A DNA stretch of 39,747 nt from Escherichia phage Vec13, in the sequence record NC_048023.1; one strand, 5' to 3'. A model generated the notes under the pieces. That model saw only the letters and a list, made by a program, of their open reading frames with translations, was not told the origin of the DNA and did no database searches. Positions within the stretch are counted from its first letter, which is position 1, and every line of letters begins with the position of its first letter. Below are positions 2,668 to 39,747 of this stretch, one piece after another. A program made the position numbers and the translations under genes.

Positions 2668-2990
2668 ACAAGTCATACGGGATTAATCTGGTACACTCTA
2701 TGGATGCAGACATGCAAATGTTAAGCCTACTGGCTACCGGGTATCGTCACGGAACGTCAAGTCACTCCGCACGTCAACAGCAGGAGAGGGACCGGGTACT
2801 ACAAGCAAGACTCAGGGCGGAGGGCCATAAGTCCGAACTGATGTGTCTGGCGTATGGTGGACGACCAATCACTGACGATGGTAAACTTCTGGTCTCAGGC
2901 TGGAAGGCGATAGACCAACGGTCAACCATCAAGCACACGACTCATGGTGACTTCAGTCATCTTCACGCTAACCCTCTGATATGCAAGTGA
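2664..2990 (+). CDS. Hypothetical early protein (108 aa) occupying the position of T7 gene 0.7
   Basis: ORF overlapping previous stop by 4 nt; no protein kinase motifs; unknown function. Confidence 0.5.
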   Translation: MNKSYGINLVHSMDADMQMLSLLATGYRHGTSSHSARQQQERDRVLQARLRAEGHKSELMCLAYGGRPITDDGKLLVSGWKAIDQRSTIKHTTHGDFSHLHANPLICK

Positions 2991-2995
2991 TTCTG

Positions 2996-3018
2996 ACTTA
3001 ACTATCACTATAGGACTC
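2996..3018 (+). promoter_or_regulatory. Phage RNAP promoter immediately upstream of the RNAP gene
   Basis: cttaACTATCACTATAGGAct matches the 11-copy phage promoter consensus; +1 G at 3013. Confidence 0.7.
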
Positions 3019-3087
3019 AAGGTCTAAGACTCCAAGTGAAAGACCAAAGAGACTTTAAGTGAAAGACTAATAACAAGGACTTTAAGT

Positions 3088-5769
3088 ATGAGCGTCATCT
3101 CTATTGATAAACACGACTTCTCTGATGTGTCGAACGCCATTGAGCCGTTTAACCTGCTGGCCGACCACTACGGGCAAGACCTTGCAGTCAAACAGCTTCA
3201 GCTTGAGCATGAGGCATACACTGAAGGCGAGCGACGTTTCATCAAAAACCTTGAGCGACAGACTGAGCGCGGGGAACTGGCAGACAATCAGGTCGCCAAG
3301 CCTTTGATGCAGACTCTGGTTCCTAAGATTGCGCAAGCCGTCAAGGAGTGGCACGAAGGTCCAGACGGGAAGCTGTCAACCTCACGTCCGAGCGTAGCGT
3401 TCACCATGTTAAGCACTGAAGAGAAGGCCGTCAAGGACCGCTCTCTTCGCATCTCCTGCGAGTCTGCTGCGGTTATCATACTGAAGGTCATCCTCTCCAA
3501 GCTGGTCAAGCCTGAAGGTATACCGATTACACCGATGGCCTCCGCGATAGGTCGCACACTTGAGGATGAAATCCGATTCGGTCGCATTCGTGACAAGGAG
3601 AAGGAGCACTTCAAGAAGGCGATAGCTGATAACCTGAACAAGAGAGCCGGGGCATCATACAAGAAAGCCTACATGCAAGCGGTCGAGACATCCATGCTGG
3701 AGCAAGGCCAACTAGAAGATGCGTGGGGAACTTGGAGTCCGACCGAGGCTGTCCACGTTGGAATCAAGATGCTGGAGATTGTCATACAGTCAACACAACT
3801 GGTCGAGCTTAAGCGTTACGGTGCTGGCAATGCAGCGGCTGACGTTGAGATGGTCCACCTGTCAGACTTCTGGGTCAAGAAGATGGCACAACGCGGCTTC
3901 AGCCTTGCGGGTATCGCTCCAGTCTACCAACCTTGCGTAGTTCCACCTAAGCCGTGGACTGGTGTCGTAGGCGGTGGGTACTGGGCCAAAGGTCGCAGAC
4001 CATTACCACTGATTCGCTTAGGGTCTAAGTCTGCGGTGGCACGTTACGAAGACGTGTATATGCCTGAAGTATATGACGCTGTTAACATCATCCAGAATAC
4101 ACCTTGGAAAGTAAACAAGAAGGTTCTTGACGTGGTGAACATGGTCGAGAAGTTGAACAACACGCCTATTGATGACATCCCTCAGATGGAGCCACTGAAG
4201 CCTGAAGACTATGCGGGTGAGACTGAAGAGGAACTCAAGGCATGGAAGAAGGCTGCTGCTGGTATCTACCGCCGAGAGAAGGCCCGGCAGTCACGTAGAT
4301 TGTCACTGAGCTTTATCGTTAACCAAGCGAACAAGTTCTCTCAGTTCAAGGCCATCTGGTTCCCGTACAACATGGACTGGCGCGGTCGCGTCTACGCTGT
4401 GCCGATGTTCAACCCTCAGGGTAACGACATGCAAAAGGGTCTCCTGACTCTGGCAGTCGGTAAGCCTATTGGTGCTGATGGTTTCAAATGGCTGAAGGTC
4501 CACGGTGCAAACTGTGCGGGTATTGATAAAGTAACCTTCGAGGAGCGCATCAAGTGGGTGGAAGATAACCACGACAACATCATGGCTACCGCTAAGGCAC
4601 CGATGGACAGCATTGAGTGGTGGGGGAAGTTAGACTCTCCTTTCTGCTTCCTTGCGTTCTGCTTCGAGTATGCTGGCGTGATGCACCACGGATTGTCTTA
4701 CTCCTGCTCGCTGCCGATAGCTTTCGATGGGTCCTGCTCTGGGATTCAGCACTTCAGCGCTATGCTTCGTGACCACATCGGTGGACATGCAGTAAACCTG
4801 ACGCCTTCCGGTAAGGTCCAAGACATCTACCGCATCGTGTCTGACCGCATTGAGGAAGAGCTTAAAGTCCTGCTGGTTAACGGCACGGACAACGAGATGG
4901 TAACTCACGAGGACAAGAAAACTGGTGAGATTACCGAGCGTCTCAAGCTGGGGACACGAGAGCTGGCCCGTCAGTGGCTGACCTACGGTATGTCACGAAA
5001 GGTCACTAAGCGCTCAGTCATGACTCTGGCCTACGGGTCGAAAGAGTACGGATTCGCAGACCAAGTATACGAGGACATCGTGATGCCAGCGATTGACTCA
5101 GGGTCTGGCGCTATGTTCACTGAACCAAGCCAAGCATCTCGCTTCATGGCTAAGATGATTTGGGAAGCTGTGAGTGTGACCGTAGTTGCTGCGGTTGACG
5201 CGATGAAATGGCTTCAGGGTGCTGCCAAGCTGCTGGCGGCTGAAGTGAAGGACAAGAAGACGGGTGAAATCCTGAAGCCTTGCCTTCCGGTACACTGGGT
5301 CACACCTGATGGGTTCCCGGTCTGGCAGGAATACCGCAAGAAGGATACCACTCGTCTGAATCTGATGTTCTTAGGGTCATTCAACCTTCAGCCTACCGTC
5401 AACAAAGGCACGAAGAAAGAGCTGGATAAGCACAAGCAGGAGTCAGGCATTAGCCCGAACTTCGTCCACTCACAAGATGGTAGCCACCTCCGCAAGACTG
5501 TAGTCCATACTCACCGCAAGTATGGCGTGATGTCGTTCGCAGTGATTCACGATAGCTTCGGGACCATCCCGGCTGACGCTGAGTATCTGTTCCGTGGGGT
5601 CCGTGAGACTATGGTCGAGACCTACCGCGACAACGATGTGCTGCTTGACTTCTACGAGCAGTTTGAATACCAGCTTCACGAGAGCCAGCGCGATAAGTTG
5701 CCAGAGCTTCCGAAGAAAGGTAAACTGAATATCGAAGACATCTTGTCTTCAGACTTTGCATTCGCTTAA
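3088..5769 (+). CDS. Single-subunit DNA-directed RNA polymerase (T7 gp1 homolog)
   Basis: 893 aa; long colinear identity with T7 RNAP incl. FPYNMDWRGRVYAV, LPIAFDGSCSGIQHFSAMLRD, VHSQDGSHLRKTV, HDSFGT, C-terminal FAFA. Confidence 0.98.
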   Translation: MSVISIDKHDFSDVSNAIEPFNLLADHYGQDLAVKQLQLEHEAYTEGERRFIKNLERQTERGELADNQVAKPLMQTLVPKIAQAVKEWHEGPDGKLSTSRPSVAFTMLSTEEKAVKDRSLRISCESAAVIILKVILSKLVKPEGIPITPMASAIGRTLEDEIRFGRIRDKEKEHFKKAIADNLNKRAGASYKKAYMQAVETSMLEQGQLEDAWGTWSPTEAVHVGIKMLEIVIQSTQLVELKRYGAGNAAADVEMVHLSDFWVKKMAQRGFSLAGIAPVYQPCVVPPKPWTGVVGGGYWAKGRRPLPLIRLGSKSAVARYEDVYMPEVYDAVNIIQNTPWKVNKKVLDVVNMVEKLNNTPIDDIPQMEPLKPEDYAGETEEELKAWKKAAAGIYRREKARQSRRLSLSFIVNQANKFSQFKAIWFPYNMDWRGRVYAVPMFNPQGNDMQKGLLTLAVGKPIGADGFKWLKVHGANCAGIDKVTFEERIKWVEDNHDNIMATAKAPMDSIEWWGKLDSPFCFLAFCFEYAGVMHHGLSYSCSLPIAFDGSCSGIQHFSAMLRDHIGGHAVNLTPSGKVQDIYRIVSDRIEEELKVLLVNGTDNEMVTHEDKKTGEITERLKLGTRELARQWLTYGMSRKVTKRSVMTLAYGSKEYGFADQVYEDIVMPAIDSGSGAMFTEPSQASRFMAKMIWEAVSVTVVAAVDAMKWLQGAAKLLAAEVKDKKTGEILKPCLPVHWVTPDGFPVWQEYRKKDTTRLNLMFLGSFNLQPTVNKGTKKELDKHKQESGISPNFVHSQDGSHLRKTVVHTHRKYGVMSFAVIHDSFGTIPADAEYLFRGVRETMVETYRDNDVLLDFYEQFEYQLHESQRDKLPELPKKGKLNIEDILSSDFAFA

Positions 5770-6086: not shown

Positions 6087-6128
6087 TATAGGATTAGACT
6101 CAAGGTCATGACTCAAAGTCGTGGCCTT
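6084..6128 (+). promoter_or_regulatory. RNase III-like hairpin (conserved tagactcaaggtcat ... gtggccttcatgatta)
   Basis: One of three near-identical elements (also 13374..13418, 36491..36538); aaggtca pairs with tggcctt with a G-U. Confidence 0.55.
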
Positions 6129-6169
6129 CATGATTAACCCTAAATAAACACTACTGGAGATTTAACCGT

Positions 6170-8696: not shown

Positions 8697-8855
8697 ATGA
8701 CTGACGTAGAAAAGAAATACATCGTGGAGCTTGAGGGTCGCGTTCAGTCATTCGAGGTTCCGGTGTACGCAAAGTCTCTTGAAGAGGCTACCCTGAAGTC
8801 CCAAGAGTATGAGGACGCTGGGTTTGTGGTCGGACGGATTCGTCCTGAGACCTAA
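8697..8855 (+). CDS. gp2-like inhibitor of host RNA polymerase
   Basis: [15 protein letters not shown]...[10 protein letters not shown] resembles T7 gp2 HSFEVPIYAETLDEA...AGFEVTRVRP; start at internal ATG 8697 with SD aaggag (track ORF 8619..8855). Confidence 0.7.
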
Positions 8856-8873
8856 ACTATCACTGTAGGACAG
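8851..8873 (+). promoter_or_regulatory. Phage RNAP promoter variant (phi2.5-like; A to G at -3)
   Basis: cctaaACTATCACTgTAGGaca immediately upstream of SSB gene. Confidence 0.55.
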
Positions 8874-8912: not shown

Positions 8913-9611
8913 ATGGCTAAAGAGCAACTGAAGACTTTCACCACTCCGGTAGCTGGTATCGTTGAGCCTTACGCATGGCTGAACAAAGCAGACACCAAGT
9001 TTAATGAGCGTGGTGAGCATAAGGTTAACCTGACTTTCAGTCTGGATGACCCGAAGGTCCGTAAGATGATTGATGTCTTACAGAAGATTCACGACGATGC
9101 GTATGCGAAAGCACTCGCAGACCACGAGAAGAACCCACCTCAGGTTCAGCGTGGCAAGAAGCCTATCGAGCCGCGCGAAGGCGATATGCCGTGGATTGAG
9201 AATGGGGACGGTACTGTTACCCTGAAGTTTAAATGCTTTGCGTCTTACCTGAAAGACGGCAAGTCAGAGCCTATCGTATTACGGTTCTACGACACTGATG
9301 CTAAGTTAATCCGTGACGTCCCGAATATTGGCGCTGGCTCCAAACTGAAGGTCAAGTTCAAAGTCCTGCCGTTCAAGTGGAACGCTGCGACTGGTGCAAG
9401 CGTTAAGCTCCAGCTTGAGTCCTGCCTTCTGGTAGAACTGAAGGAGTGGAAAGGTGATGGTGCTGGTGGTGATGGTGGCTGGGGTGACGATGAAGACCTA
9501 GGTACTGGGTACAAAGCGTCAACCGATGGTGACTTCGGGTCTGATGACTTCGGTGATGATGGTTCCGAAGGTGGTGACGACTCCAGCTCTGGTGGCGATT
9601 ACGACTTCTAA
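8913..9611 (+). CDS. Single-stranded DNA-binding protein (T7 gp2.5 homolog)
   Basis: 232 aa; GSKLKVKFKVLPFKWNAATGASVKLQLESCLLVEL nearly identical to T7 gp2.5; acidic Gly/Asp-rich C-terminal tail ending in F. Confidence 0.95.
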   Translation: MAKEQLKTFTTPVAGIVEPYAWLNKADTKFNERGEHKVNLTFSLDDPKVRKMIDVLQKIHDDAYAKALADHEKNPPQVQRGKKPIEPREGDMPWIENGDGTVTLKFKCFASYLKDGKSEPIVLRFYDTDAKLIRDVPNIGAGSKLKVKFKVLPFKWNAATGASVKLQLESCLLVELKEWKGDGAGGDGGWGDDEDLGTGYKASTDGDFGSDDFGDDGSEGGDDSSSGGDYDF

Positions 9612-10063
9612 TGGCCCAATGGTCTGCAAAACGGGGGCACTCTGTGGGTGCCTACCGCTCTGGACTTGAAGCCAAGAACCAGCAGTGGCTGGAACAGAAC
9701 GGCGTCAAAGCGGAGTACGAAAGCCATTATATCAACTATGTGATTCCGGCTTCCGACCACAAGTACACACCAGATTTTATCCTTCCCAACGGTATCATCG
9801 TGGAGACCAAAGGTATCTTCGATAGTGATGACCGTAAGAAGCACCTTCTGGTACGAGAACAGCACCCAGAGTTAGACATCCGGTTCGTGTTCTCAAGTTC
9901 CCGCTCCAAGTTATACAAAGGGTCTCCGACCACGTATGGCGCATGGTGCGAAAAGAACGGCTTTAAATTTGCCGATAAATTCATCCCGGTTGAGTGGCTG
10001 CGAGAGGCGACTGTACGTCTGCCTTCAGGTATACTCATCCCCAAGAAGAAAGGAGTTAAGTGA
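9611..10063 (+). CDS. Endonuclease I, Holliday junction resolvase (T7 gp3 homolog)
   Basis: 150 aa; YTPDFILPNGIIVETKG, DDRKKHLLVREQHPELDIRFVFSSSRSKLYKGSPTTYG match T7 gp3. Confidence 0.95.
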   Translation: MAQWSAKRGHSVGAYRSGLEAKNQQWLEQNGVKAEYESHYINYVIPASDHKYTPDFILPNGIIVETKGIFDSDDRKKHLLVREQHPELDIRFVFSSSRSKLYKGSPTTYGAWCEKNGFKFADKFIPVEWLREATVRLPSGILIPKKKGVK

Positions 10064-10518
10064 TGACTACCTGTAAAGACCTTGAAGTTGGAACACGTTA
10101 CAGATTCTCAAAGAACACCCTGTTGAATAACCCCAGCTTCACTGATGCTGTTTTCGAAAAGCGAGAAGACCATAGCGTAATTGTGGAGAAGGGGTGGCAT
10201 CCTGAGGATTATATCGGTGAGACTACCAGCTGGAATGGTCACGAGACCTACAGTGTAGAAGTTGTTGACCAGCCTCAAGTCCTGCCAGCTTCGAGCGTAC
10301 CTCCTGTGACTGTGAAGCGTGAAGTCCTGACAATCGACAAGATTGGTGTAGGCCAGACGTTCATCGTCCATGGAAAGCCTGAAGAAGTTTACGTGAAGAT
10401 TAGCAACTCACACGTCTTCAACCATAAGCGTCTCCAGATGCACACCACGGACGCACAACGCTTCACCCAGCACCTGAATCTAGTGGTCGTAGAATTGGTG
10501 GTGTACAATGGTAAGTAA
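10063..10518 (+). CDS. Hypothetical protein (151 aa) inserted between endonuclease I and lysozyme
   Basis: ATG overlaps gp3 stop (tgATG) with SD aaggag 8 nt upstream; overlaps lysozyme start; no T7 counterpart at this position. Confidence 0.6.
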   Translation: MTTCKDLEVGTRYRFSKNTLLNNPSFTDAVFEKREDHSVIVEKGWHPEDYIGETTSWNGHETYSVEVVDQPQVLPASSVPPVTVKREVLTIDKIGVGQTFIVHGKPEEVYVKISNSHVFNHKRLQMHTTDAQRFTQHLNLVVVELVVYNGK

Positions 10519-10966
10519 GGTACAGTTCAACCCACGGTCCCGGACTGACGCTATCTTCGTTCACTGTTCGGCTACCAAGCCAGAGATGGACATCGGGGTA
10601 GAGACCATCCGTATGTGGCACAAGCAGCAAGGCTGGCTGGACGTAGGCTACCACTTTATCATCAAGCGCGATGGTACTGTGGAAGAGGGTCGCCCGGTAA
10701 ACGTCGTAGGGTCACACGTTAAGGACTGGAACTCACGGTCTGTAGGCGTCTGCCTTGTAGGTGGAATCGACGCTAAGGGCAAGTTTGAAGCTAACTTCAC
10801 TCCGGACCAGATGAACTCCCTACGCAACAAGCTGGCTGACCTGAAGTCCCTGTATCCTCAGGCAGAAATCAAAGCACATCATGATGTAGCACCAAAGGCG
10901 TGTCCAAGTTTCGACTTACAGCGCTGGCTGTCTACTAATGAGCTGGTCACTTCCGACCACGGTTAA
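10508..10966 (+). CDS. N-acetylmuramoyl-L-alanine amidase / T7 lysozyme (gp3.5 homolog)
   Basis: 152 aa; TDAIFVHCSATKP, QGWLDVGYHFIIKRDGTVEEGR, VGVCLVGGID, HHDVAPKACPSFDL, NELVTSDHG match T7 lysozyme. Confidence 0.95.
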   Translation: MVSKVQFNPRSRTDAIFVHCSATKPEMDIGVETIRMWHKQQGWLDVGYHFIIKRDGTVEEGRPVNVVGSHVKDWNSRSVGVCLVGGIDAKGKFEANFTPDQMNSLRNKLADLKSLYPQAEIKAHHDVAPKACPSFDLQRWLSTNELVTSDHG

Positions 10967-13207: not shown

Positions 13208-13372
13208 GTGTTAAAGAAACTTAAAGCTCGATACCACATGTTCATGTACAAATGGTGGAGCGATGAAGCAACCTGCCTGTCGAACATTCTGGGAGACCAG
13301 CGGTTCAACTCTGAGGCATGGAAGAAAGCTAACCGGAAGTTCATGTATCACTTCTTGCGTACAGACTTCTAG
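13208..13372 (+). CDS. Small hypothetical protein (54 aa, GTG start), gene 4.3/4.5 position
   Basis: Strong SD acggagga 7 nt upstream of GTG; below ORF-track cutoff. Confidence 0.35.
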   Translation: MLKKLKARYHMFMYKWWSDEATCLSNILGDQRFNSEAWKKANRKFMYHFLRTDF

Positions 13373-13373
13373 G

Positions 13374-13418
13374 TCTAGACTCAAGGTCATTCATAGCGAG
13401 TGGCCTTTATGATTAGAC
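13374..13418 (+). promoter_or_regulatory. RNase III-like hairpin (conserved element copy 2)
   Basis: tctagactcaaggtcat ... gtggcctttatgattagac; same motif as 6084 and 36491 copies. Confidence 0.55.
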
Positions 13419-13436
13419 TAAAGCGGAGGATTAACC

Positions 13437-16059: not shown

Positions 16060-16265
16060 GCGAATACTTACGGGTCCTTGCGGCCCTTAAGTCCTGCCCG
16101 AAGACCTTCCAGTCCAACTATGTGCGCAACAACGCTGCACTTGTGGCTGAGGCTGCGAGTCGTGGACATCTAAGCTGCCTGTCTATGGATGGGCGTAACA
16201 ACGGTGCGTGGGAGATTACCGCTGAAGGCACCAAGTTCCTGAACCAACACGGAGGCTGTCTATGA
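16056..16265 (+). CDS. gp5.7-like protein
   Basis: 69 aa; LKSCPKTFQSNYVRNNAALVAEAASRGH...GAWEITAEGTKFL closely matches T7 gp5.7. Confidence 0.85.
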   Translation: MSEYLRVLAALKSCPKTFQSNYVRNNAALVAEAASRGHLSCLSMDGRNNGAWEITAEGTKFLNQHGGCL

Positions 16266-16540
16266 GTCAACAACCTTTTGATTTTCTGGGCCAACCTATC
16301 GAAGTGGGCGACAAGTTCGTATACGCTGAGGCTGGTGGACGTGGTGGTACAATGGCGCTACACTCTGGTGTCGTCACACGGATGACTGAGAAGCAGGTGC
16401 TGGTGGAGAAGACCAGATGGGGCCAGACTTGGCGTCCATTTAACTGCATCGTCATTGTAGAGAAGTGCGGTCCAGGCGAGGAGCCTCTTCTAGGAGCAAC
16501 CTTATCGATGGCTAAAGGAGGTCTGGACGATGGGTGCTGA
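16262..16540 (+). CDS. Hypothetical protein (92 aa) at the gene 5.9 position
   Basis: SD ggagg; no resemblance to T7 gp5.9 as I recall it. Confidence 0.5.
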   Translation: MSQQPFDFLGQPIEVGDKFVYAEAGGRGGTMALHSGVVTRMTEKQVLVEKTRWGQTWRPFNCIVIVEKCGPGEEPLLGATLSMAKGGLDDGC

Positions 16541-33846: not shown

Positions 33847-35877
33847 ATGTCCACGATTACACAATTCCCTTCAGGAAGCACTCAGTACAGGATTGAGTTC
33901 GACTACCTAGCCAGAACGTTTGTTGTTGTTACGCTGGTGAATAGCTCTAACCCTACCCTGAACCGTGTACTGGAAGTTGGTCGAGATTACCGATTCCTTA
34001 ATCCAACGATGATTGAGATGTTGGTTGACCAATCAGGTTTCGACATCGTTCGCATTCACCGTCAGACTGGAACTGACTTAGTGGTAGACTTCAGGAATGG
34101 CTCAGTGTTGACAGCTAGTGACCTGACAAATTCAGAGCTTCAGGCTATCCATATTGCAGAAGAAGGTCGAGACCAAACGGTTGACTTAGCGAAGGAATAT
34201 GCCGATGCTGCTGGTAGCTCTGCTGGCAACGCTAAGGATAGCGAGGACGAAGCACGCCGAATCGCTGAGAGTATCAGGGCGGCTGGTCTAATTGGTTATA
34301 TTACCCGTCGCTCCTTCGAGAAAGGCTACAACGTTACAACATGGAGCGAGGTCCTGCTATGGGAAGAGGATGGTGATTATTACCGCTGGGATGGTACGCT
34401 TCCAAAGAACGTTCCTGCTGGTTCAACTCCTGAAACTTCCGGTGGGATTGGATTAGGTGCGTGGGTTAGTGTTGGTGATGCTGCTTTAAGAAGTCAGATT
34501 TCAAACCCGGAAGGGGCAATACTCTACCCAGAATTACAGATGGCGCGCTGGCGAGATGAGGGTGATGTTCGCGGATGGGGTGCTAAAGGTGATGGTTCTG
34601 CGGATGATACAGAGGCTTTCAAGGCAGCACTGGCAACAGGAAAGAATCTATATATCCCCGTTGGTATATACATCATTAAAGAGACTTTGTACTTTAAGAA
34701 CCAAGTTATTAAAGGTGGGGGAATATCTCCATCACCAAGTCTTGGTACAATCCTAGCAATCTCTCACAATGAAGCAGCTTTTAAGTATGACGTTAACTCT
34801 GGATACTCCATGGGTGGCTACTTAGGCGGTTTCTTCATTGATTATGGTGAGAACAAGCCAGACAACTATGGTGGTCGCAAAGGTATTGATATTGGTGATG
34901 CATCGCAGACAGCATGGCCTTCACAATTTATCATTGAGAACATCATAGTACGTGGTGCGTACTTTGGTATTCATGACGTGACAGGGGCTTTTCAGTATAC
35001 CATGCGTAACGTATTGGCGATTAATTGCTGGGAAGGTTTCCGTAAGCATATTGGTACTACAGTCCTAATGGATACATGCTACGCACTTAATTGTTATCAG
35101 GCGTTCAATTTTGCAAACGTGTACAACATGACTATGAACAATTGTGCAATGGACGGCTGTAATGATATACAAGGTCTACAGGCTTTTGATATTAACAACT
35201 GTAAAGGTATGGTAATAAATGGCATGTACAGCGAGAACTGTGAGATTCATCATAATGGACATGCCTCTATATATATTCATGGGGACTCAACAGTAACACT
35301 TAACGGATATGCACTACATTCCCACAAAGTTCTGGCTAGTTCTGGGGAGGCTTACTTCTTACGAGCACATGAAAGTTCTCGCGTTACTGTTGATGGTATC
35401 TTCTTCGGGGAAGACCTGACGTCTACTGCTGTATTCATGTACCCAGTCCTGTCTTCTGGGGATGCTAGAGTTAAGCTTGGAACTACTAGATTGAAGTTGT
35501 GGACTGGTGCTACGGGTGGGGCGTCACTGGCTGCACTAGGTAACAGTTTGATTGAGTATGACAACACAGTCTTTGTTCCAACAGTCACGGTCGGATGGTG
35601 TAGCAACAACGGAGTTGTAGCCAAAGGTACTCTTGCAGTTAACACTACGCTTGAACCAGGTGCTGACCTGAATGCCGGTAATATTACCCTCACTGGTGAC
35701 TACAAGCCAACTAAGGGGGATGTGCTTGTGTATGGTGCTACCTTTGATGTTAAGTCATGTTCAATTATTCTCAAGCCAATAGGGGAGAATTTATGTAATG
35801 TGTACATTAAGAACTTAAGTGCAGGTGGTAGTGCTACTCTTCTTGGTGACTTGATGGTACAGGCCATCCGACGCTAG
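33847..35877 (+). CDS. Tailspike/tail fiber: T7 gp17-like N-terminal adaptor plus pectate-lyase-like beta-helix (putative polysaccharide depolymerase)
   Basis: 676 aa; N-terminus FDYLARTFVVVTLV, DYRF, IHIAEE match T7 gp17; from about residue 240 WGAKGDGSADDTEAFKAAL and repetitive G/N/C-rich stretches typical of pectate lyase superfamily tailspikes. Confidence 0.9.
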   Translation: MSTITQFPSGSTQYRIEFDYLARTFVVVTLVNSSNPTLNRVLEVGRDYRFLNPTMIEMLVDQSGFDIVRIHRQTGTDLVVDFRNGSVLTASDLTNSELQAIHIAEEGRDQTVDLAKEYADAAGSSAGNAKDSEDEARRIAESIRAAGLIGYITRRSFEKGYNVTTWSEVLLWEEDGDYYRWDGTLPKNVPAGSTPETSGGIGLGAWVSVGDAALRSQISNPEGAILYPELQMARWRDEGDVRGWGAKGDGSADDTEAFKAALATGKNLYIPVGIYIIKETLYFKNQVIKGGGISPSPSLGTILAISHNEAAFKYDVNSGYSMGGYLGGFFIDYGENKPDNYGGRKGIDIGDASQTAWPSQFIIENIIVRGAYFGIHDVTGAFQYTMRNVLAINCWEGFRKHIGTTVLMDTCYALNCYQAFNFANVYNMTMNNCAMDGCNDIQGLQAFDINNCKGMVINGMYSENCEIHHNGHASIYIHGDSTVTLNGYALHSHKVLASSGEAYFLRAHESSRVTVDGIFFGEDLTSTAVFMYPVLSSGDARVKLGTTRLKLWTGATGGASLAALGNSLIEYDNTVFVPTVTVGWCSNNGVVAKGTLAVNTTLEPGADLNAGNITLTGDYKPTKGDVLVYGATFDVKSCSIILKPIGENLCNVYIKNLSAGGSATLLGDLMVQAIRR

Positions 35878-36230: not shown

Positions 36231-36490
36231 CGCAGATGGACTTAGAGAAGTTCCTCTTGATGCTAGATACTGAACGTGCTCGACTCATGCTGCAAGACCT
36301 GCGGGATGACACTAAGCGTTCACCTCAGCTTTACAACGCCATTGAGAAGCTACTGGCTCGTCACAACTTCGTGCTAAGCAAGGTGTCTGTCGACGAGAAG
36401 ACTCTGGCTGATATGGAGGCCCTGAACGCAGAGTACGATAAGGTGCTCTCGGCTACGGAAGATAATGACACCGGGTATGGTGTTCAATAA
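36227..36490 (+). CDS. Terminase small subunit (T7 gp18 homolog)
   Basis: 87 aa ORF immediately upstream of Rz-like and TerL in T7 order; SD aaaggagg. Confidence 0.8.
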   Translation: MTQMDLEKFLLMLDTERARLMLQDLRDDTKRSPQLYNAIEKLLARHNFVLSKVSVDEKTLADMEALNAEYDKVLSATEDNDTGYGVQ

Positions 36491-36538
36491 GTGTTAGACT
36501 CAAGGTCATTACTATATGTAGTGGCCTTTATGGTTAAC
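36491..36538 (+). promoter_or_regulatory. RNase III-like hairpin (conserved element copy 3, R18.5-like)
   Basis: gtgttagactcaaggtcat ... gtggcctttatggttaacac; outer arms gtgtta/taacac complementary. Confidence 0.55.
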
Positions 36539-36591
36539 ACTAACTAGTGGAGGAGACTCTACGTGAAATCTGATAAACCGGGAGGGCAACT

Positions 36592-39568: not shown

Positions 39569-39747
39569 TCTCACAGTTCAAGAACCTCAAGTCTCCCCAT
39601 AGGCCCTCTTTAAGTCCAGACCAAAGGCCCTACCCCAGTCTATCATAAGGTTAGACCGATGGTCAAGACTTCAGGTCAACGATAGGTGGTGACTATGGCT
39701 TAGGGAAGGACGATAGGTGGTGACTATAGGTCTGTCTTTGAGTCTCT
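39569..39747. repeat. Right direct terminal repeat (DTR), identical to 1..179
   Basis: Exact 179-nt repeat of the window start. Confidence 0.9.

Follow-up and report, generated by a model that had tools for sequence, protein, structure and literature searches.

What is the open reading frame of 151 amino acids that lies between the genes for endonuclease I (gene 3) and lysozyme (gene 3.5) in Escherichia phage Vec13, and what might its product do? The window, that is the whole stretch of 39,747 nucleotides that was analysed, is a complete linear K1F-like (Kayfunavirus) genome with perfect 179-bp direct terminal repeats at 1-179 and 39569-39747. In T7, as a sequence-only reading of the window had stated, gene 3.5 comes directly after gene 3 (position 10706 is both the end of gene 3 and the start of gene 3.5). 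The same reading placed a 151-aa frame at this junction in Vec13 and stated that both of its ends overlap a neighbour, and we can confirm each of these points: the gene 3 stop codon (TGA, 10061-10063) and the ATG of the frame (10063-10065) have one base in common in the string TGATG, and 11 nt are common to the end of the frame and the amidase gene, whose ATG is at 10508. The products of the flanking genes are 64.7% (gp3) and 68% (gp3.5) identical to those of T7, and the Shine-Dalgarno sequence of the frame is well spaced (Table 1). The exact protein is already present in RefSeq as 'hypothetical protein' gp20 of Escherichia phage Vec13, while K1F annotates its homolog as gp3.2, as do Dev2 and EcoDS1; we use that name here. 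Sequence and family are thus already catalogued, and what is added here is the two-module architecture of the protein.

Table 1. Features of the gp3.2 locus and phage promoter-like sequences of the Vec13 genome (window coordinates).
Feature	Position	Strand	Remarks
Promoter-like copies	approx. 2996, 6073, 7753, 8850, 11203, 17525, 20725, 21713, 26500, 33776, 38895		
Phage-RNAP promoter copy, phi2.5-like	8844..8869	+	in 9-copy repeat family ..CTAAACTATCAC[T/G]ATAGG
Gene 3, endonuclease I	9611..10063	+	PF05367 E 9e-82; left recombination anchor of the cassette
Shine-Dalgarno AAGGAG	10050..10055	+	7 nt 5' of the gp3.2 ATG; read from sequence
gp3.2 ORF, 151 aa plus stop	10063..10518	+	ATG 10063, TAA 10516-10518
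N-terminal module, residues 1-70, cassette 'type A'	10063..10272	+	acidic, pI 4.8; predicted SH3-like barrel
Pro-rich linker PQVLPASSVPP, residues 71-81	10273..10305	+	right-hand cassette anchor
C-terminal core module, residues 82-151	10306..10515	+	basic, pI 9.5; five-stranded SH3-like barrel predicted
Gene 3.5, amidase/lysozyme	10508..10966	+	Amidase_2, PF01510 E 5e-16

Judged by its sequence, gp3.2 is a real protein-coding gene under purifying selection. The frame was open in only 58 of 200,000 shuffles (2.9e-4), and its codon usage correlates with that of the large phage genes when read in frame (r 0.51-0.53), a correlation that disappears off frame (r 0.06 and -0.11). Over the last 70 codons, compared among 16 related loci, dN/dS was 0.04-0.24 at dS up to 1.4, which is comparable to the values for gp3 and gp3.5, and in one pair of loci it was 0, without any nonsynonymous change. 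The gene is located in the class II (DNA-metabolism) transcription unit, packed against the endonuclease I stop codon; the phi2.5-like promoter copy heads the unit gp2.5-gp3-gp3.2-gp3.5-gp3.7. Sequences resembling phage-RNAP promoters, with the consensus CTAAACTATCACTATAGG, occur in eleven copies in the Vec13 genome, none of them within gp3.2. Since searches for a promoter, a terminator or an Rfam element within the ORF returned nothing, gp3.2 belongs to the unit that runs from the promoter at about 8850 to the next at about 11200, and a hidden DNA or RNA element as the explanation of its conservation was rejected on the same searches. An antisense ORF of 87 aa (10108-10371, minus strand) lies inside gp3.2 and is most likely spurious, because the recognised genes are all on the plus strand.

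How old is the gene, and how far has it spread? By tblastn, the protein was matched in 219 phage records. Of the 1,485 records with any endonuclease I, 219 likewise carry one that reaches 80% identity or more to that of Vec13; these are essentially the Kayfunavirus set, and gp3.2 is present in about all of them. A diverged branch, with about 37% core identity, occurs in Providencia T7-like phages and again starts at the endonuclease I stop. The gene lies directly downstream of gene 3 in Vec13, K1F, 15 IMG/VR loci, PH1061, two metagenomic contigs and PSTCR2. No gp3.2 was seen at this junction in Ningirsuvirus, Minipunavirus, Berlinvirus, Chatterjeevirus or the gh-1-like phage, where gene 3 abuts gene 3.5. 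An exhaustive HMM search of 1.84e9 representatives recovered only 14 clusters (50% identity), all from the gp3.2 family, three word-indexed homology searches found nothing beyond that family, and the genomes of 185,579 bacterial species, when scanned, yielded no gp3.2. A bacterial or prophage origin was rejected, there being no relatives in bacterial genome contigs.

Given that gp3.2 is genus-wide, that it recurs in Providencia phages and that T7 and other genera lack it, we conclude that it was added to this lineage long ago and is core to Kayfunavirus rather than a sporadic insertion. That gp3.2 is additional to the gene set of T7, and to that of most Studiervirinae, is borne out by its absence from T7 and five sampled genera, and the suggested long-standing integration by its occurrence at the same place in about all Kayfunavirus and, at ~37% identity, in the Providencia phages. 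The description of gp3.2 as an accessory insertion needs to be divided: the gene as a whole is core to its genus and already annotated, whereas its N-terminal half is accessory and variable. The same applies to the suggested translational coupling, with which the tight overlaps are compatible; the conserved coupling is to gene 3 and not to gene 3.5, because two further ORFs intervene between the gp3.2 homolog and the endolysin in the Providencia phages, and an HNH endonuclease intervenes in PH1061. In PSTCR2, the two Providencia ORFs (positions 2777-3350 of locus L002) encode hypothetical proteins of 117 and 79 aa, so that the interval between genes 3 and 3.5 accumulates accessory genes in the Providencia phage lineage.

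The observation that gp3.2 has no recognisable motif stands. Neither single sequences nor profiles matched Pfam, NCBIfam, PADLOC or PDB sequences, and neither module matched Pfam at E<=1. The protein matched the HMMs of only two PHROGs, 16385 (E 3.4e-51, residues 66-151) and 15211 (E 4.9e-40, residues 82-151), both of which are catalogued without an assigned function. In the literature we found the gene name in annotation tables only, with no functional study of gp3.2 and no description of a core-plus-cassette organisation, and the family was not found in the supplementary files of a large phage accessory-gene screen.

The two halves of the protein differ sharply in their evolution. In an alignment of 120 homolog clusters, median identity was 98% for the C-terminal part versus 18% for the N-terminal part. 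Over 63 diverse sequences from two genera, 16 core residues are invariant (G97, F100, Y110, S114, N115, S116, H117, F119, N120, Q125, M126, H127, T128, T129, R133 and F134), and Vec13 gp3.2 carries all 16. They form the motif VYVKISNSHVFN..QMHTT..RF, or as the full pattern G..F..(9)..Y...SNSH.FN....QMHTT...RF. The core can also stand by itself: about 120 GenBank records match residues about 82-151 alone, mostly as a core-only form of 74-76 aa, and Dev2 and the SH3-like phages carry a 74-aa core alone.

In contrast to this near-invariance, the N-module, which is 55-75 aa long, falls into eight sequence families by BLAST. These are mutually unrelated by BLAST and hhalign, except for two Providencia types (96% probability), so that there are at least seven unrelated types. 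Among GenBank phages, type B, that of K1F, is the most frequent (56 records), followed by A (25), C (10), E (4) and D (2). Vec13 and K1F have gp3.2 cores that are 96% identical, whereas their N-modules, of type A and type B, are unrelated; the type A module of Vec13 is absent from PHROGs v4 (best E 0.025). Apart from their similar size, we found no physico-chemical property shared among the N types. That the N and C modules arose by internal duplication, or that the N types are distant homologs of one another, was rejected, with hhalign probabilities below 10% (the Providencia pair excepted).

The boundaries of the variable segment are abrupt. Sliding-window identity to close relatives is 92-100% across gene 3 up to its stop codon, falls to 24-50% between about 10050 and 10300 and then returns to 86-100%, a drop sharp enough to mark out a cassette that lies between the 3' end of gene 3 and the Pro-rich linker; the linker is nearly invariant among forms with both modules. 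In K1F (type B), phiYIO1-1 (type C) and phiHAO2-2 (type E), the flanks are 94-96% identical to those of Vec13. From these comparisons of sequence, we conclude that the N-module has been exchanged by recombination between these two boundaries of the cassette. N type follows neither the similarity of the flanks nor the genus of the host; the idea that host genus sets the type was rejected, as A and B are each found across several genera and all of the types occur among E. coli phages. Modules are not only exchanged but also accumulated: in three architectures two N-modules are stacked before the core, and two of these were confirmed, at the same junction, in contigs of 39 kb. In one stacked variant, P0168, residues 1-81 (positions 2501-2743 of locus L027) match PHROG 26483 (E 1.5e-5) and PHROG 13152 (E 2.9e-5), so at least one cassette type is common to other phage protein families. 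The N-modules also diverge rapidly within a type, with a mean identity of 0.40-0.81 versus 0.80-0.94 for the core, and with dN of 0.12-0.41 and omega of 0.35-0.49 at moderate distance versus an omega of about 0.1 for the core. Swapping among at least seven unrelated N versions fits a role in a host-virus arms race, although it is not proof of one.

Structure prediction gives these modules a similar look. AlphaFold2 (AF2) modelled the type A N-module confidently, with a pLDDT of about 90, and gave the linker a low pLDDT. As the alignment was near-invariant, the conserved half of the full protein at first reached a pLDDT of only 35-45; with the Providencia branch included, the core was modelled at 84-93 with five strands. 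Both modelled modules are predicted to be small, generic SH3-like barrels without catalytic signatures, and the five-stranded barrel superposes on members of the SH3-like barrel family. The likeness to FeoA, the C-terminal SH3-like domain of DtxR/IdeR, KapB and KOW/Tudor proteins is one of fold class only, at 7-15% identity and without Pfam membership. In particular, gp3.2 does not belong to the FeoA or Fe_dep_repr_C families of Pfam and, unlike FeoA and DtxR/IdeR, it has no iron-transport or repressor context, lying instead in a phage DNA-metabolism operon. An NlpC/P60 peptidase was considered and rejected: the matches span the beta part only, and the C-module has no cysteine.

What, then, might gp3.2 do? 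Our leading reading, to which we would give a probability of about 35%, is that it is a non-enzymatic binding adaptor or inhibitor aimed at host factors. We favour it because of the swapping, stacking and fast divergence of the cassettes, the generic interaction folds and the precedent of the T7 class II proteins. The invariant core would bind a partner that is itself conserved, whether a machine of the host or a protein of the phage, and the N-module, being exchangeable, would serve to recognise or mask a target that varies from one host strain to the next, such as a component of a defence system. A host-variable target of this kind would account for the continued swapping, diversification and stacking of the N-module. 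To our knowledge, the characterised small class II proteins of T7 (gp2, gp1.2, gp5.5, gp5.7, gp5.9 and gp4.5) all bind host proteins. By analogy, gp3.2 appears to resemble them in size, class II location, non-enzymatic look and lineage-restricted distribution, whereas they share no sequence similarity with it and lack its design of an invariant core with an exchangeable cassette.

For that design a different comparison may be apt. The internal proteins of T-even phages combine a conserved capsid-targeting sequence with a swappable effector, and polymorphic toxins are comparable. As in gp3.2, a conserved anchor is joined to unrelated, recombining modules in what looks like the signature of an arms race; the likeness would be one of analogy, as there is no homology, the variable part of gp3.2 is N-terminal, about 70 aa long and non-enzymatic, and neither packaging nor secretion is known for gp3.2. 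The suggestion in the sequence-only reading that such insertions serve host interaction or anti-defence is compatible with the cassette-like hypervariability. The more specific proposal, that gp3.2 represents a modular class of counter-defence or host-takeover proteins in which at least seven kinds of stackable SH3-like specificity cassette, exchanged between the two fixed anchors, would allow K1F-like phages to retarget an invariant effector or anchor core to factors of the host strain, is one that we put forward as doubtful.

Of the competing explanations, the one that survives best is that gp3.2 assists phage DNA metabolism as an accessory factor that binds nucleic acid, which we regard as possible but rather unlikely. 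Barrels of the KOW, Tudor, uL2, EF-P and Sso7d types bind DNA or RNA, and the basic SH3-like core could do the same, working with or tempering endonuclease I or the recombination and replication machinery, with the N-module as a variable regulatory or oligomerisation appendage. The linkage to gene 3, kept in two genera, also speaks for it, but weakly, since gene order in T7-like phages is generally frozen. Against it, the same endonuclease I operates without gp3.2 in T7 and in most Studiervirinae, no nucleic-acid-binding family was detected by sequence, and a housekeeping role leaves seven or more unrelated, stackable N-cassettes unexplained.

We consider it improbable that gp3.2 regulates phage transcription or lysis, with its core binding the phage RNAP or the downstream lysozyme. 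The overlap with gene 3.5 in Vec13 would suit such a regulator and the extreme invariance of the core would fit a conserved phage partner, but the linkage to gene 3.5 is not conserved, and gp3.2 has no similarity to known RNAP or lysozyme binders.

That the gene is selfish or neutral filler, whether a remnant of a mobile element or a passenger of a homing endonuclease, is very improbable and essentially excluded. The region is a recombination hotspot, its N-module is slightly AT-richer than the Vec13 genome, and HNH homing endonucleases insert at or near the locus in some relatives: PH1061 (between gp3.2 and the amidase, positions 2946-3317 of locus L018), TM1 and KM02. These endonucleases may promote the local mosaicism. 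Filler would not be expected, however, to have a core under such strong purifying selection, with its 16 invariant residues across two genera, or to persist in about all of 219 phages whose genomes, at 39 kb, have little DNA to spare. Moreover, gp3.2 itself has no nuclease or mobility motif (no HNH, GIY-YIG or LAGLIDADG motif by Pfam and NCBIfam), and the HNH genes of its relatives are separate ORFs. Least probable of all, with nothing found in its favour, is that gp3.2 is a diverged T7 gene or not a gene: its coding signatures (dN/dS, codon usage, shuffles) are clear, the best matches in a database of 53 T7 proteins had E values of 0.99 (blastp) and 0.48 (C-module profile), and the hits of a BFVD fold search were members of its own family or small anonymous phage proteins, none of them a named T7 protein.

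Therapy and phage engineering make wide use of K1F-like phages, with encapsulated E. coli, Salmonella Typhi, Enterobacter and Klebsiella as the targets. Within an otherwise 93-100% conserved 2.5-kb region, the N-terminal half of gp3.2 is the sharpest mosaic spot, and this makes gp3.2 an obvious candidate for a factor that, beyond receptor binding, determines how well individual strains are infected. Should the cassette logic prove real, the modules of 70 aa would offer a tractable means of studying how lytic phages diversify their host-interaction specificity, and gp3.2 could be used as a marker when phages for therapy are selected or engineered. If the function is one of housekeeping, the locus would be just another T7-like accessory gene; gp3.2 would be notable only if the modular counter-defence reading were confirmed by experiment.

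Several further features of the Vec13 genome were recorded. There was no match in it to T7 genes 0.4-0.7 (including the kinase), 1.1, 1.4, 1.5, 3.8, 4.1, 4.3, 4.5, 4.7, 5.3, 5.9 (the RecBCD inhibitor), 6.3 or 7; an ORF of 92 aa without an annotatable match (16262-16540) occupies the gene 5.9 position. The tail fibre gene (33847-35877) encodes a tailspike of 676 aa with the N-terminal adaptor of T7 gp17, a Tail_spike_N domain and a pectate-lyase-like beta helix, and by its sequence this protein is predicted to be a polysaccharide depolymerase rather than the K1F endosialidase. A conserved family of hairpins (TTAGACTCAAGGTCAT...) with an internal loop is found at 6089-6142, 13372-13419 and 36490-36541, with folding z-scores of -4.4, -2.9 and -4.8, respectively, at positions that we take to match the T7 RNase III sites R1.1, R4.7 and R18.5. 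Hairpins of a second family, at 1206-1258 and 1523-1577 (z -4.3 and -5.3), are 95% identical copies that lie between small early ORFs, with a partial copy at 892-912, and are probably early-region RNA processing sites.
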